Assembly: GCA_021788015.1 (NCBI GenBank) | Contig: JAJYLD010000002.1 | Span: 135,033-199,032 of the forward strand | Reading direction: 5' to 3' | DNA length: 64,000 nt | From: a bacterium | GTDB lineage: Bacteria; Patescibacteriota; Patescibacteriia; Patescibacteriales; JAKAJF01 | Part shown: in pieces, positions 3,508-63,805 of the stretch | How the letters are laid out: the number at the start of each line of letters is the position of its first letter | Position numbering within the stretch: the stretch's first letter is position 1 | Made by a program: the position numbers and the translations under genes | Notes under the pieces: generated by a model | Databases searched by the model: none | The model's input: only the letters and a program-made list of their open reading frames with translations | What the model was told of the DNA's origin: nothing

Positions 3508-4155
3508 ATGCCGACTTATTTAAACGAATACATTTCCTATACAAAAAAGAAAACCGCTTACATTCCGGTCGGAACGATTGAGTGGCACGGCAGCCATCTT
3601 CCGATTGAAACCGATTTTTTGGTCGCGCAAAAAATTTGCGGATTGCTTCAAAAGAAAAAAGACGGTTATGTTTTGCCGCCGATTTATTTGGGGACTGACA
3701 CTATGGAAGAGAAAAACGGGAAAAAATTAATCGGCATGGATCGCGCGCTAGGCAAAGAATTAAAAGGCAGCCTTTATTATGTTGAGCCGGAGCTATTTCA
3801 AGAAATGATAAAAAGCTTGGTTGAGAACCTTAAAAAAGATGGGTTTAAAAAATGTTATATTGTTACGGGGCATGCCGGCTCCGCCCAAATTAAAACGTTG
3901 AAGAAACTTGAAAACAAAATTGTGCGACTGATTGATCCATACGAACTTTTTAGCGTTAATGTCGAGCATGCGGATGAATATGAAACTTCTCTTTTTTGGG
4001 CGTGCTATCCGGAAGAAGAAAAGAAAAGCCGGGCGATAAAAATTTCTGCGAACGATGATTTTATAAAGGACATGGGATACGATGTTCGAGAGAAAGCGTC
4101 TTTGAAAATCGGAAAGAAAATGTTAAAAGAAATGTTAAATAAAATTAAAATATGA
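3508..4155 (+). CDS. Creatininase-family amidohydrolase
   Basis: Carries EWHGSHLPIETD, GHAGSAQ and HADEYETS, which match the family's metal-binding motifs. Confidence 0.75.
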   Translation: MPTYLNEYISYTKKKTAYIPVGTIEWHGSHLPIETDFLVAQKICGLLQKKKDGYVLPPIYLGTDTMEEKNGKKLIGMDRALGKELKGSLYYVEPELFQEMIKSLVENLKKDGFKKCYIVTGHAGSAQIKTLKKLENKIVRLIDPYELFSVNVEHADEYETSLFWACYPEEEKKSRAIKISANDDFIKDMGYDVREKASLKIGKKMLKEMLNKIKI

Positions 4156-11718: not shown

Positions 11719-11925
11719 CGCTGCGCTAAGCCCTACTTTTTGTAACCAAAAAATAGGCCAACCCGTCCGCAATGCTTCGCATAGCGATGCGGGCAGGGAA
11801 GTTTTGGGTGCTCCAATTCGCTATCACAATGATTTAGCTTTAGATTGTTTCGCCTTGACGCTTCCGCCTCGGCGAGTCTAAGGCGAGACGGGCAACCCCG
11901 CCCCCAAACCCCACGGTGTTTTGAG
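11719..11925. ncRNA. Structured non-coding repeat, copy 1; family and strand unknown
   Basis: By hand alignment it is about 85-90% identical to 60191-60395. It has several hairpins, one with a compensatory change between copies, and no conserved ORF. Confidence 0.5.
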
Positions 11926-29393: not shown

Positions 29394-30476
29394 ATGTCTT
29401 TATCCATCGGCATCGTCGGTTTGCCCAATGTCGGCAAATCGACTTTATTTAACGCCCTGACAAAAAAACAAGTCGACGCTTCCAATTACCCTTTCTGCAC
29501 CATTGATCCGAATGTCGGAGTGGTGAAAGTTCCGGATGAAAGATTGGAAGCTTTGGCGCGAATTTCCAAGCCGGAAAAAATCATCAACACCGCCATCGAA
29601 TTCGTCGATATTGCCGGTTTGGTTAAGGGTGCGCACGAAGGCGAAGGTTTGGGCAACCAATTTTTATCCCGTATCCGCGAATGCGACGCGATTTGCGAAG
29701 TGGTGCGCGAGTTTAAAGATGACAACATCATTCACGTGAACAATAGAATCGATCCCGAAGGCGACCGCGAAACTATAAATATGGAATTGGTTTTTGCCGA
29801 TCTGGCCACGGTCGAAAAAAGTTTGGTTCGGATTACCAAAGAGGCCAGGAGCGGCGACAAAGAGGCTTCGGCCGCACATCCTCTTTTGGAAAAAATAAAG
29901 AAAAATCTCGAGCAGGGCCGCGCCGCGCGCGAAGTGGAATTAAACGATGACGAAAAAAAATTAATAAAGAGTTTAAATTTATTGACAATCAAGCCGATTA
30001 TTTATGTTTTGAACAGTAATAATGAAGAAAATCTCCTAACCCCCCTTAATAAGGGGGGCGTTAATGAATGGGGCGGTAAGATTTTAAAAATCAATATCAA
30101 ACTGGAACAAGAAATTGCGAGTTTAAGCGATGATGAACAGAAAGAATTTGTCAAAGAACTGGGATTGGCGGAAAGCGGTTTGGACAAATTGATAAAAGCG
30201 GCATACGAACTGCTTGGGTTAATAACATTTTTTACGACCGGTCGCGATGAAACGCGCGCTTGGACGGTAAAAAGGGGCGCAAGAGCCCCGGAAGCGGCCG
30301 GCGTCATTCATACCGATTTTGAAAAAGGTTTTGTGCGGGCGGAAACTATAAATTGGCGAAAATTTGTCGAAGCGGGCGGAGAAACTGAAGCGCGGGAGAG
30401 GGGCCTGATTCGCACAGAAGGCAGAGACTATATTGTTAAAGACGGAGATGTCTGTCATTTTTTAATTAATAAGTAG
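29394..30476 (+). CDS. ychF: Ribosome-binding ATPase YchF
   Basis: GIVGLPNVGKSTLFNALT, DIAGLVKGA, and a TGS-domain C terminus. Confidence 0.9.
   Translation: MSLSIGIVGLPNVGKSTLFNALTKKQVDASNYPFCTIDPNVGVVKVPDERLEALARISKPEKIINTAIEFVDIAGLVKGAHEGEGLGNQFLSRIRECDAICEVVREFKDDNIIHVNNRIDPEGDRETINMELVFADLATVEKSLVRITKEARSGDKEASAAHPLLEKIKKNLEQGRAAREVELNDDEKKLIKSLNLLTIKPIIYVLNSNNEENLLTPLNKGGVNEWGGKILKINIKLEQEIASLSDDEQKEFVKELGLAESGLDKLIKAAYELLGLITFFTTGRDETRAWTVKRGARAPEAAGVIHTDFEKGFVRAETINWRKFVEAGGETEARERGLIRTEGRDYIVKDGDVCHFLINK
30040..30058. repeat. G/C-clamped palindrome inside ychF
   Basis: CCCCCC-TTAATAA-GGGGGG, which encodes ..TPLNKGG.. Confidence 0.6.
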
Positions 30477-39632: not shown

Positions 39633-42263
39633 ATGTATCTCGAAAAACTCGAAATTCAAGGATTCAAATCTTTCGCGAGCAAGAATATTTTGGTGTTTCC
39701 CGGCATGTTGGACAAAGAAAGGCGCGGACTGACGGCCATTGTCGGACCGAACGGATCGGGAAAATCGAATACGGCCGACGCCGTGAGATGGGTCCTGGGC
39801 GAACAGAGCATGAAAACGCTTCGCGGCAAGAAAAGCGAGGACGTTATTTTTTCCGGATCGGAAAAATTGGGAAAACTGGGCATGGCTGAGGTTTCTTTGT
39901 ATTTGAACAATGAAGATCGCAAGGCGCCGATCGATTTTTCCCAAATGATTTTAACAAGGCGCGTTTATCGCGACGGGAACAGTGAATATTTTTTAAACAA
40001 CAGCCGGGTGAGACTGGCCGACGTGCAGATGCTTCTCGCCAAAGCGAATTTCGGCCAAAGGACGTATAGCGTTATCGGTCAGGGCATGGTGGAAGGATTT
40101 TTGAACACAAGTTTGGCGGAGAGAAAAGAATTTTTCGACGAAGCGACCGGGGTAAAGCAGTTTCAGATCAAGCGCGACGAATCTTTGAACAAACTGAAAT
40201 TGTCTTTGGAAAATCTCGGCCAGGCGCAGATGCTTTTAAATGAAATCGAACCGCGTTTGAAAAACTTGACCAAACAAGTGCATAAGTTGCAGAAAAAAGA
40301 GGAAATGGAAATTGAATTGAAAGAAATTCAAACACGCTATTACGGAAAACTGTGGCACGAGCTCAAAGATAAGTTCAATGAAACCAACAAGAATTTTTTG
40401 GAAGTCGAAAAAATCAAATTGGATAAAGAAAGAAAACTGGAGAACATCAACCGTGAACTCGGTCAAATGGAAATGCAAAATAAAACAAGTGAAGAATTCG
40501 CGGAATGGCAAAGAAAATCGGATGAATTACAGGATCAAAAAGATTTACTTACGAAAAAACAAGCCAAGCTCGAAGCGGAGATGGAAATAAAACTGGAAAC
40601 GAGCGGACAATTCGACCTTGCTTGGCTTAACAATCGCAAAGCGAGTTTGGGCAAAGAAATTAAAAATGCGAAAACGGAGATCGGAGTACTGTCGGGAGAA
40701 CTAAAAGAATTTGAAAACGAACTCGAAAGACTGAAAAAAGAAAAAAAAGAATTGAGCGCGAAAGTGACCGATTTAAACGGCGCCTTAATCAGAAACAGCA
40801 TCAAATTCGACGATGCGGAAGGCAAAAGAATCAATAAGGAATTGAAATGGCTTTTGGAAAGATTGAGCGCGGCCGAGAACGGGGATGATTTGGGAGAAAT
40901 TAAAAACGCGATCAAAGAGATTCGGGAAAAATTAAAAGAGATTTTGGCGTTGACGGAAAAATTCGGAGATGGAGAAAATTTGGAAAAAATACAAGAAGAG
41001 CTTTCACGCGCCGCGCAAACAAGCGAAGAAATCTCCGTAAAAATCAATGAAGCGAGCGTTAAAGCTTCTTCTTTGGGCGAAAGAAAAAAAATGTTTTTGG
41101 AAAAAGCGGAAGGTTTGGGAAATGAATTAAACGATGTTGAATCGAAGTTGAAAAAATACCAAAAAACGGAAAACGCTTCCGATTCGGGAAAAGAATCGGA
41201 GAAAGTAAAAACGCAAATTGCCGCCGTTGAACAAGAAATCGAGGAAGTGAAAGAAAAAATCAACAATTATTCCGAGGGTGAAAAAGAAAAAAGACAGTAC
41301 ATTTTTGAATTGCAGAAAAAAATCCAGGTTTTGCAAAACGAGGTAAACGAATTAAACAATCGCCTGAACGAGTTGAAAATAAATTCGACGCGCTACGAAA
41401 CCAGGCTTGAAGATTTGGAAACGGAAATCAGAAATGAGATGGGCGGAATTAGGGATGCGGAAAAAACGAAAATCGAAGGACCGGTCGATTTTGAAGAAAC
41501 GCAAGCGAAAATTCACAATTTAAAAAGGCAGTTGGAGGCGATCGGCGGTCTTGATCCGGAAACGGAGAAAGAATACGTCGAGACAAAAGAAAGATATGAT
41601 TTTCTTTCGACTCAAGTCAATGATTTGACTTCGACCATCGGCTCTCTTGAAAAAATTATCAAAGAATTGGACATAACCATCAAAGAAAAATTCGACAAGG
41701 AATTTAAGTTAATTTCCCAAAAATTCGAAGAGTATTTTAAAATTCTTTTTAACGGCGGGAACGCGAAAATTATCAAGGTCCTGAGCGATGAAATGAAAGA
41801 CGAAGAGGAGGACGGTCAAGTCGAAGCGAAAGAAGAAAAAAAGGAAGACGTCATGGCAGGGGTTTATAAAAAAATAAAACTTTTACAAAGATACAATGCG
41901 ACCGGACTGGCCGGCATCGAGATCCAGGCCACGCCTCCGGGGAAGAAGATTAAATCCGTTTCCATGCTTTCGGGCGGCGAGAGAGCTTTGACCGCGATCG
42001 CTTTGATCTCGGCGATTATCAGCGCCAATCCTTCGCCGTTTGTTGTTTTGGACGAAGTGGACGCGGCTTTGGACGAAGCCAATTCGGAAAGGCTCGCGAA
42101 AATTTTGGACGATCTCTCGCATAAAACTCAATTCATTGTCATAACTCACAATCGCGCTTCCATGCGGCGCGCCAATGTTCTTTACGGCGTGACCATGCGG
42201 GACGACGGCGTTTCCAAGCTGCTCTCGGTAAAGTTGGACTACGCCGAAAGTGTGGCGAAGTAA
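39633..42263 (+). CDS. smc: SMC chromosome-partition ATPase, short form
   Basis: N-terminal FKSFA..GPNGSGKSN..WVLGEQS, C-terminal LSGGERALTAIAL..LDEVDAALD. Only 876 aa, and I see no hinge-like segment. Confidence 0.85.
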   Translation: MYLEKLEIQGFKSFASKNILVFPGMLDKERRGLTAIVGPNGSGKSNTADAVRWVLGEQSMKTLRGKKSEDVIFSGSEKLGKLGMAEVSLYLNNEDRKAPIDFSQMILTRRVYRDGNSEYFLNNSRVRLADVQMLLAKANFGQRTYSVIGQGMVEGFLNTSLAERKEFFDEATGVKQFQIKRDESLNKLKLSLENLGQAQMLLNEIEPRLKNLTKQVHKLQKKEEMEIELKEIQTRYYGKLWHELKDKFNETNKNFLEVEKIKLDKERKLENINRELGQMEMQNKTSEEFAEWQRKSDELQDQKDLLTKKQAKLEAEMEIKLETSGQFDLAWLNNRKASLGKEIKNAKTEIGVLSGELKEFENELERLKKEKKELSAKVTDLNGALIRNSIKFDDAEGKRINKELKWLLERLSAAENGDDLGEIKNAIKEIREKLKEILALTEKFGDGENLEKIQEELSRAAQTSEEISVKINEASVKASSLGERKKMFLEKAEGLGNELNDVESKLKKYQKTENASDSGKESEKVKTQIAAVEQEIEEVKEKINNYSEGEKEKRQYIFELQKKIQVLQNEVNELNNRLNELKINSTRYETRLEDLETEIRNEMGGIRDAEKTKIEGPVDFEETQAKIHNLKRQLEAIGGLDPETEKEYVETKERYDFLSTQVNDLTSTIGSLEKIIKELDITIKEKFDKEFKLISQKFEEYFKILFNGGNAKIIKVLSDEMKDEEEDGQVEAKEEKKEDVMAGVYKKIKLLQRYNATGLAGIEIQATPPGKKIKSVSMLSGGERALTAIALISAIISANPSPFVVLDEVDAALDEANSERLAKILDDLSHKTQFIVITHNRASMRRANVLYGVTMRDDGVSKLLSVKLDYAESVAK

Positions 42264-42270
42264 GGTTAGG

Positions 42271-42325
42271 ATGTAGCTTGTAGCTGGTAGGAAGCAGGTT
42301 GTAGGTGGTAGTTTGTAGTTTTTTT
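42271..42325. repeat. GTAG-word tract ending in the left copy of a 19-nt inverted repeat
   Basis: GTAGCTTGTAGCTGGTAGGAAGCAGGTTGTAGGTGGTAGTTTGTAG plus T7. Positions 42307-42325 are the exact reverse complement of 43779-43797. Confidence 0.65.
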
Positions 42326-42368
42326 AAATCCCCCTCACCCCCTTTAACAAAGGGGTAAATAAAAAAGA

Positions 42369-42404
42369 GGCGGAACTTAATTGTTCCGCCGTTTTGGTTT
42401 TTTT
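42369..42404. terminator. Bidirectional terminator (smc and the small minus-strand gene)
   Basis: Stem GGCGGAAC/GTTCCGCC with T-runs on both strands. Confidence 0.65.
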
Positions 42405-42804: not shown

Positions 42805-43635
42805 ATGACGATGGAATCGATCACGCCCGACCAGGAGAAGCAGGTTGTTCGTTTTACAGAAGACGCGGCGCGCGCGGCGGCAAGAGAGGTTCTTGAGGAA
42901 ATGTCGGAAATGCTCGGTAAAGACCCCGTTCAAAACGAGGTCATTGAGAAAGGCCACGAACTGCAGGCCGCACTCAAGCCTGTCATTAAGGAAACGTTGA
43001 CCGATTTCCTGGCGGGAAGGACGGCATCTTACAAGACGATGAAAACCATAATCCTGATCAGGACGAATGGTAAGAGCAACCCGTATTTTGACGAGACGTT
43101 CAAGCGCTGGTACAAAATGTGGCGGGATCTCGGGATTAAAAATCCTAATTTCATGGGCATAGCACCGTTCACAGCCCACGAAGGCTACCGCTCTCTGATT
43201 CTGCCCAAAAGCGATCTCATCACTCCGCAGTATCTCTATGACCGCTGCAACGAACGGTTCGACTGCTGGAAATGGACAAGCGGATCGCTCGACAAAGTCA
43301 TGGTCAACGAAAACAGGGGCCGCGACTATGTTGTCTGGTTCCGCGACAGGGTCGAAGCCGATGAAGAGCTTATGGACAAGTCGGCCAACGACCTCACGAA
43401 ACTCAAATTTCCCGGCATCACCTTAACCGAGCGGGAGCTCCAGGAGTATGACCACTTCAACCGCACCGGCGGCCATTTGGACATTAAAAACATAACCCTT
43501 TGTTCGGGTTCGCGCTATTCCGATGGCACTATGCCGAGCGTCCGCCGGAGCGACGATAGGATGAACGTCAGCTGGGACTACCCGGGCGACTCGAGCGGCC
43601 CCCTGCGTTCCCGTCAGCAGTTTTTTTCCTTCTAG
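42805..43635 (+). CDS. Hypothetical protein in a GC-rich island
   Basis: 276 aa. SD AAGGAGGG lies 5 nt upstream. Codons are G/C-ending, unlike the neighbouring genes. No motif recognised. Confidence 0.6.
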   Translation: MTMESITPDQEKQVVRFTEDAARAAAREVLEEMSEMLGKDPVQNEVIEKGHELQAALKPVIKETLTDFLAGRTASYKTMKTIILIRTNGKSNPYFDETFKRWYKMWRDLGIKNPNFMGIAPFTAHEGYRSLILPKSDLITPQYLYDRCNERFDCWKWTSGSLDKVMVNENRGRDYVVWFRDRVEADEELMDKSANDLTKLKFPGITLTERELQEYDHFNRTGGHLDIKNITLCSGSRYSDGTMPSVRRSDDRMNVSWDYPGDSSGPLRSRQQFFSF

Positions 43636-43691: not shown

Positions 43692-43740
43692 AAAAATAAT
43701 TTTCTTTAAAATAATTTTATCTCGGGAATGATAGAATTAG

Positions 43741-43813
43741 TTTGTAGGTTGTAGTGAGTGGTGAGTAGTTTAGTTTTAAAAAAAACTACAAACTACCAGC
43801 TACCAACCTACAA
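43741..43813. repeat. GTAG/CTAC-word long hairpin
   Basis: TTTGTAGGTTGTAGTGAGTGGTGAGTAGTTTAGTTTT, then A8, then CTACAAACTACCAGCTACCAACCTACAAA. Confidence 0.65.
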
Positions 43814-43876
43814 ACTATTTTATTATTTTTTAAATCACCCCTGCCTCTCTTTATCAAAAAGGGCATAAACGAACCT

Positions 43877-45397
43877 ATGTCTTCAAAAATTTTATCCGCG
43901 GCCGTGATCGGTTTAAACGCCGAGCTTGTTGAAGTCGAGGCCGATACGGCGAACGGTCCCTGGGGCCAGTTTACCGTAGTCGGTTTGCCGGACGCAGCCA
44001 TTTCCGAATCGCGCGAAAGAGTAAGGAGCGCGGTCAAAAATTCCGACTTGCCTTTTCCGAAACGGAAAGTAATCGTGAATCTGGCGCCGGCCGATTTAAG
44101 AAAGCAGGGCCCGAGTTACGATCTGCCGATCGCGATCAGCATTCTTCACGCCACATCGAGAATTTTTATCAACGATAATCTCGAAGAAACTCTTTTTATT
44201 GGCGAGTTGGCGTTAAACGGATCGCTTCGACCGGTAAACGGAGTTTTGCCGATCGCAATTTACGCCAAGACCAAAGGCGTAAAGAAAATTTTCGTTCCCA
44301 CTCTGAACGCGAAAGAAGCAAAACTGGTCGGCGATTTGGAAGTTTATCCCGTCGGCACTCTCACTGAATTGATTTTGCATTTGGAAGGAAAAAGGGCGAT
44401 TGAACCGATTCCGGCGAGCGATTTCGACTTTTCCAATTTGGAAATTTCTTTCGACATGGCGCATATCCGCGGGCAGGAACATGTAAAACGGGCGATGGAA
44501 ATCGCCGCCGCCGGCGCGCATAATATGCTTATGTCCGGGCCGCCCGGGTCGGGGAAAACCTTGATCGCCCGCACCATGCCCTCTATTCTGCCCGATTTGA
44601 TTCTCGAAGAAGCCTTGGAGCTTACAAAAATTTATAGCGTGGCCGGCCAACTCACCGAAAACGCGAGCCTTGTCAAAAGCCGGCCGTTCCGTTCCCCGCA
44701 TCATACGGCTTCCGGTGTCGCTTTGGTCGGGGGCGGAACTTGGCCGCGGCCGGGAGAAATTTCTTTGGCGCATCGCGGCGTTCTCTTTCTTGACGAATTC
44801 GCCGAATTTCCCCGCCAGGTTTTGGAAAATTTGCGCCAGCCGCTCGAGGAAGGAATAATTCATGTCAGCCGGGCGGCCGGCAATTTAAGTTTTCCCGCGA
44901 AATTTATTTTAATCGCGGCCATGAATCCTTGCCCTTGCGGTTACTTGGGCGATCCGGAAAAAAATTGCATTTGTTCGCCTTCGCAAGCGGTCAATTACCG
45001 TAAGAAAATTTCCGGGCCGATTATGGATCGCATCGATTTGCATATCGATGTGCCGCGGATAAAATTCGACAAACTCACCTCTCTTTCCGCTTCCGAAGAC
45101 TCAAAAACGATTAAAGCGAGAGTTAACCGAGCGCGCGCAATTCAAAAAGAAAGGTTTAAAAATTCCGGTTTTATCACCAATTCCGAGATGACATCGGAAG
45201 CGACCAAGGGTTTTTGCGGATTGGACAACACTTCGGCGAATCTTTTGCGCAACGCCGTCAACCAAATGCATTTGTCCGCCCGCGCCTATTTTCGAATTTT
45301 AAAACTCGCCCGCACCATCGCTGATTTGGCCGGGGAAGAAAAAATTCTCGTTTCTCATCTTGCCGAAGCCTTGCAATATAGGCCAAGATTGGAGTAG
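43877..45397 (+). CDS. YifB/ComM-family Mg-chelatase-like AAA ATPase
   Basis: Lon-like N-terminal domain, Walker A GPPGSGKT, and LFLDEF. Confidence 0.9.
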   Translation: MSSKILSAAVIGLNAELVEVEADTANGPWGQFTVVGLPDAAISESRERVRSAVKNSDLPFPKRKVIVNLAPADLRKQGPSYDLPIAISILHATSRIFINDNLEETLFIGELALNGSLRPVNGVLPIAIYAKTKGVKKIFVPTLNAKEAKLVGDLEVYPVGTLTELILHLEGKRAIEPIPASDFDFSNLEISFDMAHIRGQEHVKRAMEIAAAGAHNMLMSGPPGSGKTLIARTMPSILPDLILEEALELTKIYSVAGQLTENASLVKSRPFRSPHHTASGVALVGGGTWPRPGEISLAHRGVLFLDEFAEFPRQVLENLRQPLEEGIIHVSRAAGNLSFPAKFILIAAMNPCPCGYLGDPEKNCICSPSQAVNYRKKISGPIMDRIDLHIDVPRIKFDKLTSLSASEDSKTIKARVNRARAIQKERFKNSGFITNSEMTSEATKGFCGLDNTSANLLRNAVNQMHLSARAYFRILKLARTIADLAGEEKILVSHLAEALQYRPRLE

Positions 45398-45465
45398 AAG
45401 GCATATTTTACCTTGAGAGAGGGTATATGGTATAATAAAAACATATTTTAAACAAGTCTTTCTAT

Positions 45466-45565
45466 AACTCAAAAGTCAAAAATCAAAACTCAAAACTGCA
45501 ACTTAAAACTCAAAAGTTTTTAGTTTTAAATTTTGGTTTTGAGATTTGAGTTTTGCATTTTGATT
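45466..45565. repeat. CAAAA-word long imperfect hairpin
   Basis: Left arm uses TCAAAA/CTCAAAA words; the right arm is complementary (GTTTTGAG/TTTTGA). A TGGTATAAT box lies at 45427-45435, upstream. Confidence 0.55.
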
Positions 45566-45591
45566 TAAAATTTCGGAACTAAAAAATTAAC

Positions 45592-47001
45592 ATGATTATG
45601 AAAAGAAAATTATTTTTTTTCAGTTTAATTTTTACAACGCTTCTTACCGCCGGTTTCGGCTGCAATCCTTCGTTTACGAACCAAAAAGCCCAGGAAGCCA
45701 TGCAACCGATTACTTTGAATTATTGGCGCGTTTACGACGGTTCCGATGATTTTAAGGACATTATCGCCAATTATCAAAAAATTCATCCTTTTGTAAAAAT
45801 AAACTATCGCGAATTGACGTATGACGAATATCAAAACGCTCTTCTCAACGCTTTCGCGGAAGACAAAGGTCCGGACATTTTTTCGATTCATAACACTTGG
45901 GTAAGAAAATACAAAGATTTGATCAAGCCCTTGCCCGAAACCATCACCATGGCTTATCCGGTTACGCAAGGAACGCTTAAAAAAGTGGTGGTGCCGGTTT
46001 TAAAAACGACAAAAAGCCTTTTGCCTCAAGATGTCGCCAATAATTTCGTGGACGCGGTTTATGGCGACGTGGTTATTCCGGATTCCAAAACGCAAAAAAA
46101 TTTGATTTACGGCTTGCCTTTGTCGATCGATACTTTGGTTATGTATTATAACAAGGATTTGTTCAATAACGCCGGCATCGCCCAGCCGCCCGCTTATTGG
46201 AATGACGAGTTTCAACAGGATGTAAAAAAATTGACCGAGCAGGATACCAAGGGACAGATTGTCCAGTCCGGCGTTTCGCTGGGCGGAACAACAAACGTGG
46301 AAAGGCCGGAAGATGTTTTATCCGTTTTGATGATGCAGGACGGGGCGCAAATGATGGACAATACCGGAGCGGTTGTTTTTGACAATATTCCCAACGGGTT
46401 TCAAGAACAGAATTCCAGTCCGGGAGCTGACGCTTTGCGTTTTTATACCGATTTTGCCAATCCGGCCAAAGAAGTATATAGTTGGAACAGCACTCTCGAT
46501 CCGTCTTTGCAGATGTTCACCGAAGGGAAATTGGCCATGACTTTCGGCTACTCTTATGATTTGCCAACCATTCGTTCCGAGGCGCCGAAACTGAATTTCG
46601 GCATTGCCAATTTGCCGCAAATCGAAAATAATCCCCAAGTCAACTTTGCCAATTATTGGGTGGAAACGGTTTCGAGTAAAAGCCAGCACGCGAACGAGGC
46701 TTGGGATTTTGTTCAATTCGAGACAAGCGCGGAGCAAGCAAAATTATATTTGGGAAAAGCCAAAAAACCGACCGCTTTAAGATCGTTAATCGATTGGCAG
46801 TCAAGCGATCCCGACCTCGGTCCGTTCGTTTCGGAAGTTTTAACCGCGAAGAGCTGGTATCATGGCAACGATCCTGACGCGGCCGATAAGATTATGAACG
46901 ATATGATCGATCAGGTTAATTCTGGACAGGGCAAAATCGAAGACATTCTTCGCTTGAGCGCGATGAAAGTTCAGCAAACGGTGAATGAGAGTAATTACTA
47001 A
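45592..47001 (+). CDS. Extracellular solute-binding protein, ABC sugar type
   Basis: Lipoprotein-like signal (..TAGFGC) and family-1 SBP features. No adjacent permease genes. Confidence 0.65.
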   Translation: MIMKRKLFFFSLIFTTLLTAGFGCNPSFTNQKAQEAMQPITLNYWRVYDGSDDFKDIIANYQKIHPFVKINYRELTYDEYQNALLNAFAEDKGPDIFSIHNTWVRKYKDLIKPLPETITMAYPVTQGTLKKVVVPVLKTTKSLLPQDVANNFVDAVYGDVVIPDSKTQKNLIYGLPLSIDTLVMYYNKDLFNNAGIAQPPAYWNDEFQQDVKKLTEQDTKGQIVQSGVSLGGTTNVERPEDVLSVLMMQDGAQMMDNTGAVVFDNIPNGFQEQNSSPGADALRFYTDFANPAKEVYSWNSTLDPSLQMFTEGKLAMTFGYSYDLPTIRSEAPKLNFGIANLPQIENNPQVNFANYWVETVSSKSQHANEAWDFVQFETSAEQAKLYLGKAKKPTALRSLIDWQSSDPDLGPFVSEVLTAKSWYHGNDPDAADKIMNDMIDQVNSGQGKIEDILRLSAMKVQQTVNESNY

Positions 47002-52219: not shown

Positions 52220-53494
52220 ATGCGATACTTTTTTATCCTAGGCACAAACCCCACCCTATCCATAGCAGAAATTTTAGCCGTTTTTCCCGGAGAAAATTAT
52301 GAATTGATTAATAAGGATGTTTTTTTGCTGGACACGGAGGAAATCAACGCGCAAGAAATGATAAAGAAGTTGGGCGGCACGATTAAAATCGGAAAAATTG
52401 AAAAGAAAATTGAAAATAAAAAAGAACAAATCGCGGAGGCGGTTTCGGAGCGTGTAAAAGAAGTGGAAGGGAAATTTAATTTTGGAATTTCTTATTATGG
52501 CGAAGGAAAGTATGATACTAAGCCGCTCGGCATGGAAGCAAAGAACAAGTTAAAGAGCATGAACATAAATTCAAGATTTGTGACGAGTCGGGAAAAAACT
52601 TTGTCGAGTGTTGTTGTCAAACAAAATAAATTGACGAAACCCGGGGAAGGGTCCGAGTTTGTTTTGATAAAATCCCCCCTAAAAATCCCTCTTAATTCCC
52701 CTTTGGCAAAGGGGGCAATAGGTGAAGGGGGCGGGAAGGAATTTTTATTCGGCAGAACCTTGGCCGTCCAGCCGTTTAAGGAATTGTCATTTCGTGATTA
52801 CGGCCGGCCGGCACGGGATGACTTTTCCGGCATGCTTCCGCCCAAACTGGCGCAGATTATGATAAATTTGGCAACAGCAGGAACGGGGCATGCCCCGTTC
52901 CTGCTGGATCCGTTTTGCGGTTCGGGAACGATTTTAAGCGAGGCCATGCTTATGGGTTACAAAAACTTAATCGGAAGCGATCTTTCGGGAAAAGCGGTCG
53001 AGGATACGAAAAAAAATCTTGAATGGATAAAGACCAATTACCAATTACCAATTACCAATGATCGGTTATACAATGTAAGTGCGACGGAAATTTCTAAGGT
53101 TGTAAAGCCGAATTCAATCGATGCGATTGCGACCGAGCCGTTTCTCGGACCGCAGAGAGGCAAGATTGATTTCATAAAAATAAAACAAGAATTGGAAAAA
53201 TTGTATTCGGACAGTTTGCGCGAGTTTTATAAAATTTTAAAACCGAAAGGAAGAGTGGTAATGATTTTTCCATTTTTTACAGCTCCTCTTGTTAATTCTC
53301 CTCTTAAGGGAGGCATCGGCACCAAGCAATATGTAACAAATTTGGATCCGAATTTGAACGGTTTTAAAATTGTTAATCCGATTCCGGAAGATTTAAGAAA
53401 AAATAAAATTTTAAAATTGACCGAGAGAGGAACGATTATTTACGGTCGCGAAGGCCAGAAGGTTTGGAGAGAGATTGTGGTTTTGAAAAAATAA
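52220..53494 (+). CDS. THUMP-like / UPF0020-type SAM-dependent RNA methyltransferase
   Basis: LDPFCGSGTILSEA and ATEPFLG. The start MRYFFILG is preferred. Three palindromic segments lie in frame. Confidence 0.65.
   Translation: MRYFFILGTNPTLSIAEILAVFPGENYELINKDVFLLDTEEINAQEMIKKLGGTIKIGKIEKKIENKKEQIAEAVSERVKEVEGKFNFGISYYGEGKYDTKPLGMEAKNKLKSMNINSRFVTSREKTLSSVVVKQNKLTKPGEGSEFVLIKSPLKIPLNSPLAKGAIGEGGGKEFLFGRTLAVQPFKELSFRDYGRPARDDFSGMLPPKLAQIMINLATAGTGHAPFLLDPFCGSGTILSEAMLMGYKNLIGSDLSGKAVEDTKKNLEWIKTNYQLPITNDRLYNVSATEISKVVKPNSIDAIATEPFLGPQRGKIDFIKIKQELEKLYSDSLREFYKILKPKGRVVMIFPFFTAPLVNSPLKGGIGTKQYVTNLDPNLNGFKIVNPIPEDLRKNKILKLTERGTIIYGREGQKVWREIVVLKK
52672..52742. repeat. G/C-clamped palindromic element in frame in the methyltransferase
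   Basis: ATCCCCCCTAAAAATCCCTCTTAATT-CCCCTTTGGCAAAGGGG-GCAATAGGTGAAGGGGGCGGG, encoding KSPLKIPLNSPLAKGAIGEGGGKE. Confidence 0.6.
52875..52906. repeat. Perfect 32-nt palindrome inside the methyltransferase CDS
   Basis: CAGCAGGAACGGGGCATGCCCCGTTCCTGCTG, which encodes ..TAGTGHAPFLL.. immediately before the SAM motif. Confidence 0.8.
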
Positions 53495-56216: not shown

Positions 56217-57194
56217 TTATTTTATTTTCCATTTCCCATTTGTCTTTTCTATTTTCGCTTCGATTGTGAAGCCGGCCGCTTTGGCATGCCCGCCGCCACC
56301 GAGTTCGCATGCGAGGAGAGAAATGTCGGCTTTGGGATCGGACGAACGGATGCTGCCCTTTATTTTTCCGTCCGGTTTTTCAAAAAGAATCAAAACCGCT
56401 TTAACACCGCGGAGATTGCCGAGGAAATTGGATATGCCCTCAAGATCGTCTTCGCTTGCGCCTTCCGTGTCTTCAAGAGTAAGAACGGTAAAAGCGAGAT
56501 TGTATTTTTTATTCATTTCCAGATTGTTCATGGCACGGCCCAGAACTTTTAATCCGGCCAAGCTTCTGTTCGTCCAAATTCTTTCCAAAATTTTTGGAAA
56601 ACTTGCGCCGTAGCTTAACATCTCGGATGAAATTTGGATTGTTTTGTCCGTTGTTGAAGGGTAAAGAAAATTTCCCGTGTCGACCGAAATACCGGTTAAA
56701 ATGCAGTTCGCGATTTTTTTATTGAATTTGATTCTATTTTCTTTAAAAAAATCGTAAATCAATTCAGTTGTCGAAGCGGCCTCGGGATTTTTAATTTCCA
56801 AATCGGCAAAGTCGTCGATTTTCGGATGATGATCGATATTGATTACAAGCTGCGATGTATTTCTGTTTTTAATTTCTTCGATAAGCCTTGTCCTTCTTAA
56901 ATCTCCGCAATCGAGAGCTATGATTAAATCGAAATCGGCAAATTTGAATTTGCTTTTGTCCGAGCTGATTTTTTCAATATGGGGGAGATAATAAAAATTT
57001 AAAGAAGGAGCATCGGCGCAATAAGCAAAATAGTTTTTTTTGCTGCCACGCTCGTTTAAGTTTTCTAAGAGTTCTATCATGGCGCACATCGAACCCAAAG
57101 CGTCGCCGTCCGGCCGCTCATGGCAAACCAGGAGAACGTTTTTTGATTCTTTGATTTTTGCGTATATTTTATTGTAAGTGAATGTATTGAGCAT
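56217..57194 (-). CDS. DHH/DHHA1 phosphoesterase (NrnA-like)
   Basis: HERPDGDALGS, the DHH motif (IDHH), and GGGGH. The start MLNTF at 57194 is preferred. Confidence 0.8.
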   Translation of the reverse strand: MLNTFTYNKIYAKIKESKNVLLVCHERPDGDALGSMCAMIELLENLNERGSKKNYFAYCADAPSLNFYYLPHIEKISSDKSKFKFADFDLIIALDCGDLRRTRLIEEIKNRNTSQLVINIDHHPKIDDFADLEIKNPEAASTTELIYDFFKENRIKFNKKIANCILTGISVDTGNFLYPSTTDKTIQISSEMLSYGASFPKILERIWTNRSLAGLKVLGRAMNNLEMNKKYNLAFTVLTLEDTEGASEDDLEGISNFLGNLRGVKAVLILFEKPDGKIKGSIRSSDPKADISLLACELGGGGHAKAAGFTIEAKIEKTNGKWKIK

Positions 57195-57202
57195 TTTTAA
57201 GG

Positions 57203-57228
57203 TAGAGACGTGGCATGCCACGTCTCTA
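57203..57228. repeat. Perfect 26-nt palindrome just upstream of the NrnA-like start
   Basis: TAGAGACGTGGCATGCCACGTCTCTA. It shares the GGCATGCC-type centre with 52875-52906. Confidence 0.8.
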
Positions 57229-57311
57229 TATTTGGAATTATGTATTCTACCAAATAAAAAAGAGCTTGGCAAGCTCTTAGGGGCGGGTGGTTTTTGAATT
57301 GAATATTTCTC

Positions 57312-60190: not shown

Positions 60191-60395
60191 CGCTGCGCTA
60201 GGCCTTACTTTTTGTAATCAAAAAGTAAGCCAACCCGTCCGCAATGCTTCGCATAGCGATGCGGGCAGGGAAGTTTCGGGGGCTCCAATTCGCTATCACA
60301 TTGATTTATCTTAAAGTTATTTCGCCTTGTCGCTTCCGCCTCGGCGAGCTTAAGGCGAGACGGGCAATTCCGCCTCCAAACCCCGTGGTTTGTTG
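60191..60395. ncRNA. Structured non-coding repeat, copy 2
   Basis: See 11719-11925. Lies between the divergent infB and ruvB genes, outside the predicted leaderless ruvB transcript. Confidence 0.5.
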
Positions 60396-60431
60396 AAAAC
60401 GAGTCGCGTCTATATATTTCATGTTTCCGTA

Positions 60432-62632: not shown

Positions 62633-63805
62633 ATGCGACTTAAAGATTTTGATTATAACCTGCCAAAAAATTTGATCGCTCAAAAACCAATCAGTCCGCG
62701 AGATCGTTCGCGGCTTTTGATTTTGCGCAGAACTCGGATCCGCGCGGACTTAAAAATCGGATCCGCGCGGACTGAAATTGAACACAAACATTTTTATGAT
62801 ATTGTTGATTATTTTAACAAGGGCGATGTTTTAGTTTTAAACAATACGAAAGTTTTTCCGGCAAGATTGATCGGGAAGAAAAAGGAAACCGGCGGCAAAA
62901 TCGAAGTGTTTTTATTGAAAACCTCACCCCAAACCCCTCTCTTAATTAGGAGAGGGGAGAAAGGGGAGAGGTGGCGATGTTTAATCGGTGGTCATGGAAG
63001 AAAAGAAAAAATGGAAATTGAATTTGAAGGCGTAAATACGCGCCGCGGCGCGTCTTTACGAGCGAAAATTTTAAAAGACAATAAGGACGGGACTTGGCTC
63101 GTTGAATTTAACAAAGGCGGTAAAAGATTTATGGACGTTGCCGAAAAAATCGGCCAAGTCCCGTTGCCGCCGTATATAAAACGCGGCAGAGGCATGATTA
63201 ATAACGTTCCTGCGGATAAAAAAAATTATCAAACCGTTTACGCGGAAAAAATCGGATCGGTCGCCGCTCCGACCGCCGGTTTTCATTTTACGCCGAAATT
63301 AATCAAGGAAATAAAAAAGAAAGGCGTGGAGATCGTTTATATCACTTTGCATGTCGGTCTGGGAACGTTCGCTCCGGTTAAAACGGAGAAAGTCGAAGAA
63401 CATAAAATGCACGCGGAATGGTTTGAAATAAAAAAAGAAACGCTTGAAAAAATTCTCGAAGCGAAAAAAGAAAAAAAGAAAATTTTTGCCGTCGGCACGA
63501 CAAGTGTGAGAACCTTGGAAACGGTATTCTCGTCTCACATATCTCATATAGGGCATCGAAAAAAGATACGAAATAAGCAGTACGTGATACGAGACTTTTC
63601 CGGTTGGACGGATATTTTTATTTACCCGGGCTACAAATTTAAAGCCGTCGATAATGTGATTACCAATTTTCATTTGCCAAAATCGACCCTTCTGATGCTT
63701 GTCGGCGCTTTTGCCGGAAGAAGTAAAATCAAGCGCGCGTACGTCGAAGCGATTCGAAGAAAATACCGTTTTTTCAGTTACGGCGACGCCATGCTGATTA
63801 TTTGA
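62633..63805 (+). CDS. queA: S-adenosylmethionine:tRNA ribosyltransferase-isomerase
   Basis: DFDYNLPKNLIAQKP, PLPPYI, AAPTAGFHF, VGTTSVRTLE, and NFHLPKSTLLML. Three repeat-derived segments lie in frame. Confidence 0.9.
   Translation: MRLKDFDYNLPKNLIAQKPISPRDRSRLLILRRTRIRADLKIGSARTEIEHKHFYDIVDYFNKGDVLVLNNTKVFPARLIGKKKETGGKIEVFLLKTSPQTPLLIRRGEKGERWRCLIGGHGRKEKMEIEFEGVNTRRGASLRAKILKDNKDGTWLVEFNKGGKRFMDVAEKIGQVPLPPYIKRGRGMINNVPADKKNYQTVYAEKIGSVAAPTAGFHFTPKLIKEIKKKGVEIVYITLHVGLGTFAPVKTEKVEEHKMHAEWFEIKKETLEKILEAKKEKKKIFAVGTTSVRTLETVFSSHISHIGHRKKIRNKQYVIRDFSGWTDIFIYPGYKFKAVDNVITNFHLPKSTLLMLVGAFAGRSKIKRAYVEAIRRKYRFFSYGDAMLII
62734..62773. repeat. Direct repeat of a 17-mer inside queA
   Basis: TCGGATCCGCGCGGACT occurs twice at a 23-nt period. 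Each unit contains the palindrome TCCGCGCGGA. Confidence 0.8.
62921..62971. repeat. Nested G/C-clamped palindrome inside queA
   Basis: The core is CCCCTCTCTTAATTAGGAGAGGGG (62934-62957). The outer arms are ACCTCACCCC and GGGGAGAGGT. Confidence 0.75.

Follow-up and report, generated by a model that had tools for sequence, protein, structure and literature searches.

Probable remnants of REP-like hairpin repeats in frame within three loops of a Trm11-like methyltransferase gene of Patescibacteria

In-frame insertions of repetitive extragenic palindromic (REP) sequences or Rickettsia palindromic elements (RPEs) into protein-coding genes rank as a curiosity of the textbooks, with most known cases coming from Rickettsia and a small number of REP-rich bacteria, while the Patescibacteria carry genomes that are among the smallest and most streamlined known. 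RPEs, reportedly described by Ogata et al. in 2000, are said to be selfish repeats that sit in frame in housekeeping genes and are translated into surface-exposed segments; RPE-1 measures ca. 100 to 150 bp, and the short RPE-4 and RPE-6 are CGTC-tagged. Here, we analyze 64,000 nucleotides (nt) of a patescibacterial genome (assembly GCA_021788015.1, contig JAJYLD010000002.1, positions 135,033 to 199,032; “the window”) in which a preliminary description had pointed to three palindromic elements within a conserved RNA methyltransferase gene and had likened them to RPEs. We put the probability at roughly three in four that these segments (elements 1 to 3 at sites 1 to 3 of the gene) are remnants of selfish hairpins of the REP or RPE kind that were tolerated in permissive loops and are now translated.

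Comparable behavior is known from several other systems. Mobile GC clusters or “byp” elements in yeast mitochondrial genes, reportedly treated by Lang et al. in 2014, are said to be skipped by translational bypassing in the case of byp. Among MITEs (transposable elements of the miniature inverted-repeat kind), cyanobacterial Nezha is an example of in-frame insertion. MITEs of Coxiella burnetii are likewise inserted in frame, are non-autonomous, and are able to extend open reading frames (ORFs; PMC5896051). GTAG-tagged REPs as surveyed by Di Nocera et al. 2013 (PMC3733652) are GC-rich stem-loops of 20 to 40 bp with a GTAG or degenerate GYAG foot that are mostly intergenic; some lie wholly within known ORFs, in frame and supposedly in flexible loops, and the listed hosts include RNA-modification and tRNA-related genes. 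Subclass 2.4 of the TnpA_REP transposases (REP-associated tyrosine transposases or RAYTs; group 4 of Bertels) is characterized by NH[IFV]H, WQ, and YIxNNP motifs at a length of ca. 194 residues, and its REPs are long, carry GT[AG]G at one end or both (“double foot”), and occur in frame within the transposase gene as well as occasionally in unrelated genes (Quentin et al. 2018, PMC6006769). The distribution of this subclass is given there as “Cyanobacteria, Bacteroidetes and various phyla” with no mention of Patescibacteria, and the survey of Di Nocera et al. includes no Patescibacteria and does not contain in its text the GTAGAGACG stem described below. A search of one literature library for work linking Patescibacteria or the candidate phyla radiation (CPR) with REP, MITE, RAYT, or palindromic elements returned no paper, in line with the earlier impression that no description is established for this lineage.

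The gene and its three elements, of which the C-run/G-run class is called A-type and the GTAG-footed class B-type throughout, are arranged as follows:

52220-53494, plus strand: host gene for a predicted Trm11-like S-adenosylmethionine (SAM)-dependent RNA (guanine-N2) methyltransferase of 424 residues, with all three flagged peptides in frame.
52670-52741, plus strand: element 1 at site 1, of the C-run/G-run hairpin class, encoding KSPLKIPLNSPLAKGAIGEGGGKE.
52698-52714, plus strand: core of element 1, CCCCTTTGGCAAAGGGG, composed of CCCCTTTG-G-CAAAGGGG.
52875-52906, plus strand: element 2 at site 2, a perfect 32-nt palindrome CAGCAGGAACGGGGCATGCCCCGTTCCTGCTG with 16-bp arms and feet GCAG/CTGC, read as a diverged GTAG-footed REP.
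53283-53313, plus strand: element 3 at site 3, 31 nt, degenerate A-type, made of the direct repeat CTCCTCTT (two copies) plus AAGGGAGG and encoding APLVNSPLKGG.

Translation bore out the coding sequence (CDS) with its three peptides, and the perfect palindrome of element 2 lies directly before the DPFCGSG codons just as first reported; the peptide of element 3 was also given correctly, though its position is the one listed here and not 53290-53314. Two matches, the fold and the Pfam family PF01170 (UPF0020; E 1.3e-13, above cut-off), lead us to predict a Trm11-like methyltransferase; scores for TIGR01177/Trm14 are below the cut-offs (82 bits against 316 for TIGR01177). The AlphaFold (AF2) model has a predicted local distance difference test (pLDDT) score of 87 and a predicted template modeling (pTM) score of 0.88, and its closest fold is the archaeal Trm11 m2G10 tRNA methyltransferase 6zxw_G (E 1.7e-22; TM 0.82 normalized by target; 18% identity). 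Motif I (DPFCGSG) and the TEPFLGP motif are both intact despite the inserts, and the predicted peptides across the hairpin inserts of the methyltransferase include GTGHAPFLLDPF and SPLAKGAIGEGGGK. The identical protein is present on three independently listed contigs (ENA, NCBI), and the labels of its 4396 homologs are overwhelmingly Patescibacteria, Parcubacteria, or Falkowbacteria. We note that reference records of metagenome-assembled genomes titled “uncultured Gammaproteobacteria bacterium” (among loci L005, L007, L014, L019, L020, L023-L025, and L030) carry a Patescibacteria-type ortholog, and some of them also CPR-like gene neighborhoods, so that these taxonomic labels look unreliable.

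We aligned the 120 best orthologs (52% to 61% identity to the query) out of the 4396 homologs and compared loop lengths at the three sites:

Site 1: modal loop of 8 residues, with 88 of 120 orthologs at this baseline; 27 residues in the window.
Site 2: modal loop of 9 residues, with 53 of 120 orthologs at this baseline; 11 residues in the window.
Site 3: modal loop of 9 residues, with 47 of 120 orthologs at this baseline; 22 residues in the window.

The inserts are also missing from nearly all of 29 more distant Patescibacteria orthologs from reference genomes that were aligned as a second sample. All three segments are lineage-specific. In the AF model, insert 1 sits between strands 144-151 and 174-183, and insert 2 forms the loop that joins helix 208-218 to strand 227-230 and leads into motif I. 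Values of pLDDT below 50 are restricted to the inside of inserts 1 and 3 (residues 160-170 and 357-369), which are flanked by well-predicted strands. Both of these inserts are predicted to be disordered, and the loop positions together with low pLDDT suggest surface exposure of the inserts.

At least five recognizable families of repeat peptides occupy these same three loops among the 120 orthologs:

Family A: peptides PLxKGGxGG and SPSPCQGEGRGEV in ortholog loops.
Family B: peptide VETRHGASL in ortholog loops, with three tandem copies in ortholog P0017.
Family C: peptides SLRGSxSDRSNLT and SLRATGGSEAISRM in ortholog loops.
Family D: peptide VIPAKAGIQ in ortholog loops.
Family E: peptides AKATAGKP and FGGQ in ortholog loops.

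Turnover is considerable, with parsimony minima of at least 12, at least 34, and at least 29 gain or loss events at sites 1, 2, and 3, respectively, on a rough neighbor-joining tree. Close pairs of orthologs capture it directly. P0040 carries a clean 63-nt insert, complete with terminal inverted repeats, that P0016 (94% nucleotide identity) lacks, and the two also show nested differences within the site-1 hairpin. Between P0051 and P0080 (86%), site 1 is empty in one and filled with an A-type hairpin in the other, site 2 holds an A-type element versus two B-type copies, and a clean 24-nt hairpin insert is found elsewhere in the gene. P0070 and P0092 (87%) are distinguished by a clean 48-nt insert forming a multi-tier palindrome and by site 2, which is A-type versus empty.

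Within the CDSs of the window, perfect GC-rich hairpins with stems of at least 8 bp number 8, compared to 1.95 ± 1.5 after synonymous-codon shuffling (ca. 4-fold) and 1.63 after codon-order shuffling, where none of 100 shuffles reached 8. With both the ortholog comparison and the shuffles in its favor, the interpretation offered by the preliminary description is supported. Searches of the window for further signals came back negative: Rfam assigns no family to any of the elements and finds only 4 tRNAs, a scan of the coding sequence for GC spikes was too noisy to reveal further inserts, and the peptide signatures of other repeat families (SLRxS.., IPAKAGIQ, FGGQ/AKATAGKP, GEGxGEV) are missing from the window’s genes.

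The strongest case is element 2, which folds at -32.2 kcal/mol (z = -7.2 against dinucleotide shuffles) and encodes part of ATAGTGHAPFLL immediately 5′ of the DPFCGSG codons, with its right arm extending into the conserved Leu-Leu codons ahead of DPF. A simple 32-nt insertion is ruled out since the loop exceeds the most frequent length among orthologs by just 2 residues. The canonical B-type sequence is GTAG-AGACG..CGTCT-CTAC, and the window holds two further relatives:

57203-57228, no strand assigned: canonical REP copy, a perfect 26-nt palindrome TAGAGACGTGGCATGCCACGTCTCTA with 13-bp arms, read as G-GTAG-AGACGTGGC-AT-GCCACGTCT-CTAT.
63031-63060, plus strand: degenerate B-type copy in queA, GTAAATACGCGCCGCGGCGCGTCTTTAC, in frame (NTRRGASLR), with a z of only -1.4.

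The canonical copy (z = -6.3 against shuffles), together with the A-type copy at 42326-42360 described below, had already been recognized as related to the intragenic elements, and both are indeed present. An identical second 24-mer, AGAGACGTGGCATGCCACGTCTCT, lies between convergent genes on the same contig, 5.4 kb upstream of the window start (L078:3367-3390). The GTAG foot of the first copy is at 57202-57205, and a CTAC foot is found at the 3′ end of L078:3367-3394. Including flanks, this genome thus has two identical copies of AGACGTGGCATGCCACGTCT ca. 62.6 kb apart, and the B-type tally over 72.7 kb (the window plus 8.75 kb beyond its start, L078) amounts to two identical copies and two diverged copies within genes. 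On the other side, the contig runs on for ca. 0.9 kb past the window. The core ACGNGGCATGCCNCGT has two exact occurrences, against 0.11 expected with 2 mismatches allowed.

Element 2 matches the canonical REP of its own genome at 18 of 24 central nucleotides, and by our own count the 6 mismatches pair up as 3 compensatory changes. In both position and reading frame, it corresponds to canonical GTAGAGACG..CGTCTCTAC copies that occupy site 2 of loci L020, L074, and L012. In the closest ortholog, P0002, the counterpart reads GGAACGCCCCGAC-TTAAG-GTCGGGGCGTTC with an outer stem GGAACG..CGTTCC and a true CTAC foot; the window has CTGC there, a synonymous change of a Leu codon. The NTRRGASLR peptide of queA matches the VETRRGASL type found at site 2 of ortholog P0103. 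Element 2 is more fittingly grouped, as a diverged member, with the family of GTAG-footed REPs that goes with RAYT/TnpA_REP systems.

The canonical copy at 57203-57228 is preceded by the upstream gene’s terminator and followed by a DHH-family gene, for whose start there are three options: TTG at 57272 (ORF listing), GTG at 57221 within the palindrome (public gene call), and ATG at 57194, which gives a typical N-terminus. With ATG 57194 as the likelier start, this copy is best read as 5′ leader or intergenic; the earlier assignment to intergenic DNA is compatible with that start, though the public gene call extends the gene into the palindrome. This ambiguity, caused by the REP itself, makes it likely that REP-derived peptides such as RDVACHVST are annotation artifacts in databases.

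A link between this REP and a transposase is apparent in other loci, which are of the Patescibacteria type. Locus L020, whose methyltransferase is 38% identical to ours, has a copy that shares 25 of 27 nt with the window’s intergenic REP, and its site-2 copy is identical at 25 of 26 nt to another copy in the same locus that lies in frame within an ORF of 195 residues. This ORF (L020:15266-15853) and one of 203 residues at L031:7511-8122 are RAYT-like, with NHVH, WQ, and YIxNNP motifs, and match the NCBIfam model NF047646 “REP-associated tyrosine transposase” (E 2e-14 and 2e-15, respectively); the L020 ORF also matches Pfam Y1_Tnp. Each of them holds the GTAGAGACG..CGTCTCTAC REP of its own genome in frame directly after the HuH motif (PNHVHGIL). 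They show the full published signature of TnpA_REP subclass 2.4 including the in-frame REP, while element 2 departs from the REPs of this subclass in its mutated feet. A different Y1 transposase gene (IMPNHIH.., YIHRNP) adjoins the methyltransferase ortholog at L076:4850-5600; with inverted hairpin copies CGTCGCAGTCTCTCCGCAGAGGACTGCGACG on both sides, it looks like a REPtron of another subclass.

The GTAGAGACG..CGTCTCTAC REP is widespread. We searched metagenomes and viral contigs of IMG/VR for GTAGAGACG-N(4-16)-CGTCTCTAC and found the pattern in at least 120 metagenome contigs (locus GC 0.29-0.66) and at least 120 viral contigs. Among the matches listed, the interior is at least 75% self-complementary in 118 of 135 metagenome and 126 of 150 viral elements, and 9 REP copies from metagenomes lie within PNHxH (RAYT-like) ORFs. 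Many copies are located in long ORFs, where they are read as VET..SL or RD..VST; only these two frames are seen because the remaining frame of the GTAG foot reads TAG. The GTAG-footed REP family is not confined to Patescibacteria. Viral contigs with this REP (L202-L321) often hold several copies each, and the repeat may be carried from host to host by phages or else by misclassified cellular DNA.

The A-type, of which elements 1 and 3 are members, has a C-rich and a G-rich arm joined by a short loop; there is often a C-run upstream and a GGGG(T)GAGG or GGGGTGAGG-like tail downstream. This class encodes SPLxKGG where it is translated, and members are also found in ychF, in queA, and between genes:

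42326-42360, no strand assigned: intergenic A-type copy, AAATCCCCCTCACCCCCTTTAACAAAGGGGTAAAT, located 3′ of the preceding gene’s stop codon and just upstream of a terminator at 42369-42395.
30040-30058, plus strand: A-type hairpin in ychF, CCCCCCTTAATAAGGGGGG, in frame (..LLTPLNKGGVNEWGG..).
62934-62957, plus strand: A-type hairpin in queA, CCCCTCTCTTAATTAGGAGAGGGG, with outer CCCC/GGGG pairing, in frame (SPQTPLLIRRGEKGE).

The queA hairpin (z = -5.1) aligns to a 10-residue gap in the solved QueA structures of B. subtilis and T. maritima. In ychF, the loop concerned varies among Patescibacteria, being shortest in L075 and occupied by A-type sequence in L199/L200; its hairpin was dropped as a net insertion because the segment is no longer than in YchF of H. 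influenzae or E. coli and counts as inserted only relative to L075. An A-type core, CTCTCCTTACCAAGGAGAG (plus GGGGTGAGGT), recurs in near-identical form in the methyltransferase genes of P0075 (site 1) and of P0070 and P0051 (site 2) as well as in the ychF genes of L199/L200, and hairpins analogous to element 1 are found at the site-1 loop of other orthologs. Across 630 kb of Patescibacteria loci, A-type hairpins are common, both intergenic and intragenic and often in tandem pairs. Judged from these sequences, the A-type is a real dispersed family to which the window’s own copies can be assigned at the level of the class only.

Two of these loci have further features. QueA (62633-63805) contains two more segments that are lineage-specific relative to the solved structures, RIRADLKIGSAR around residue 35 and ISHIGHRKKIRNKQYVI around residue 305. 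The intergenic A-type copy adjoins an array of GTAG-containing heptamers (TGTAGCT / GGTAGTT ...) at 42262-42325, which has an inverted counterpart at 43740-43815 (28-nt arms, 93% complementary); the two arrays enclose a 1.4-kb segment with the gene at 42805-43635, and the second one is a long hairpin in itself.

Measured against the described systems, element 2 and the copy at 57203 resemble GTAG-footed REPs as short GC-rich palindromic stem-loops, and what sets our case apart from the intragenic REPs of PMC3733652 is that several families hit the same loops recurrently in more than 100 orthologs. The analogy to RPEs holds for behavior, i.e., an in-frame location in conserved genes of a reduced genome, probably at exposed positions as suggested by the model, with conserved motifs left intact. 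It does not hold for membership: the elements measure 25 to 70 bp, are GTAG-footed or of the C-run/G-run class, lack an unpaired CGTC tag, and share no sequence relation with RPEs, which belong to an unrelated phylum. None of the three is an RPE. The 63-nt element of P0040 is MITE-like in its terminal inverted repeats, whereas elements 1 to 3 are shorter than typical MITEs (70 to 300 bp) and have neither terminal inverted repeats nor target-site duplications around them. Yeast mitochondrial GC clusters and byp are similar as GC-rich hairpins of an AT-rich genome that land in protein-coding genes, but the inserts here keep the reading frame and contain no stop codon, so that no bypass is needed.

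Under the reading as remnants of selfish hairpins, short GC-rich repeats would enter three structurally permissive loops of the Trm11-like gene. The B class would be mobilized by a HuH/Y1 transposase of TnpA_REP subclass 2.4 that cuts and joins single-stranded hairpin DNA at the foot, and for element 2 such RAYT mobilization in this genome is proposed by analogy with other Patescibacteria and the literature. Elements 1 and 3, beyond being repeat-like, may have been mobile as well, and the inserts are presumably neutral for the enzyme. Selection would then act as a filter, so that only in-frame copies without stop codons persist, and these only in surface loops. Because such a filter for an open frame and a permissive loop could suffice, repeated hits of unrelated families on the same three loops are accommodated, and a target preference for these loops may add to it.

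Several observations weigh against this reading. No RAYT-like or Y1 transposase gene was found by tblastn in the 72.7 kb of this genome that were covered. The feet of element 2 (GCAG/CTGC instead of GT[AG]G/C[TC]AC) fit only the degenerate GYAG form of PMC3733652. At sites 1 and 2, the elements take the place of native loop codons rather than being plainly added to them, with a net gain at site 2 of 2 residues in the window and 1 to 4 residues in other B-type carriers, which plain cut-and-paste insertion would not predict; insertion followed by trimming may lie behind it. Element 2 and its P0002 counterpart share their outer stems and differ in the interior while both are perfectly symmetric, as would not be expected of a decaying relic, and hairpin-templated repair or re-insertion into existing hairpins could underlie this symmetry as well as the loop replacement. 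The window holds no near-identical copy of element 1 or of element 3, and both fold no better than dinucleotide shuffles (z = +0.15 for element 1, where only the 8-bp core and the C-rich/G-rich polarity stand out; -7.6 kcal/mol and z = +0.09 for element 3, not significant as a hairpin), and the motif CCYCTTAA, considered as a marker of the C-run class, was dropped as it is not enriched (6 found versus 4.65 expected). Given these z-scores, element 2 is soundly called “palindromic,” whereas the term reflects composition in part for element 1 and is weakly founded for element 3, so that the original count of three palindromic elements is right for the second and overstated for the other two.

Some of the same points would suit an origin in situ, in which fast-evolving loops had their palindromes made or perfected by intrastrand template switching during replication (quasipalindrome correction): the gain of a mere 2 residues at site 2 in spite of a 32-nt palindrome that reaches conserved Leu-Leu codons, the GGAACG/CGTTCC stem shared with P0002 around different yet symmetric interiors, and the isolation of elements 1 and 3 within the window. 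We nevertheless regard such an origin as unlikely in view of near-identical family copies at different sites, genes, and intergenic spots, of clean filled and empty sites in genes that are 86% to 94% identical, and of canonical GTAG-footed copies both at site 2 of several orthologs and within RAYT-like genes; template switching may secondarily keep or extend the symmetry of elements that arrived by insertion. A selected function of the hairpins (as mRNA or DNA) or of the loops, e.g., a translation pause before the SAM-binding domain, mRNA stability, protein binding, or surface diversification, could explain the very stable perfect stem of element 2 (-32 kcal/mol), symmetry kept by compensatory differences among the window, P0002, and the canonical REP, and the repeated occupation of these loops throughout the phylum. 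It seems improbable to us, as the presence, absence, and family of the insert vary between very close orthologs, the largest group of orthologs at each site has no insert, disorder is predicted for inserts 1 and 3, and the same elements populate unrelated genes and intergenic DNA.

Coincidental C- and G-runs in variable loops, composition, or an artifact of metagenome assembly could be argued from the unremarkable folds of elements 1 and 3 and from the lack of CCYCTTAA enrichment. They could also be argued from a third near-match to the element-2 core (2 mismatches) at 3865-3880 in an unrelated creatininase-family gene (..VTGHAGSA..), which we treat as a coincidence. Against this, a perfect palindrome with 16-bp arms is far beyond expectation in 64 kb, and GC-rich hairpins exceed synonymous-codon shuffles in CDSs. 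Chance is largely refuted for element 2, assembly artifacts are rejected based on the identical protein on three contigs and analogous inserts in dozens of independent assemblies, and overall we consider an explanation of this kind highly improbable. The reading as tolerated remnants of selfish hairpins is the one that we prefer.

Two additional repeats of the window stand apart from these elements. A dispersed direct repeat of 206 nt (11719-11924 / 60191-60396; 89% identical) is intergenic at both positions, one of them just upstream of a RuvB gene, and contains a strong TTTCGCCTTG..CAAGGCGAGA-like hairpin; it has no Rfam match even at E <= 1 and may represent a MITE or else a structured RNA that is as yet undescribed. 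At 45465-45567, in the spacer between the genes 43877-45397 and 45592-47001, there is an AT-rich inverted repeat with 51-nt arms (80% complementary, 1 nt apart) and CAAAA/TCAAAA-like units.

The kind of event reconstructed here is already known, though its description for a Patescibacteria lineage appears to be new; of greater interest, and worth a proper study, is the phylum-wide turnover at these loops. One could go further and propose a targeted and fast-turning “loop replacement” in Patescibacteria, in which at least five REP-like families repeatedly replace the same surface loops of the methyltransferase, YchF, and QueA, with new arrivals placed within or beside older hairpins and with symmetry actively maintained, e.g., by HuH transposases acting on hairpins at replication forks or by hairpin-templated repair. 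We find this proposal rather doubtful; if true, the elements would systematically generate variation of protein surfaces in reduced genomes instead of being rare tolerated accidents. As remnants of selfish hairpins of several families within core genes related to translation, they would in any case mean that selfish DNA persists even in the streamlined genomes of Patescibacteria, and that length variation of CPR proteins can stem from repeat insertion and not from functional innovation. Gene callers and protein-family models are likely to be misled by peptides such as VETRHGASL, SPLxKGGxGG, or SLRATGGSEAISRM. The orthologs further provide a natural experiment on which loops of a Trm11-type enzyme tolerate insertions, and the RAYT-like genes of L020 and L031 extend the range of RAYT subclass 2.4 and its REPs to the Patescibacteria.

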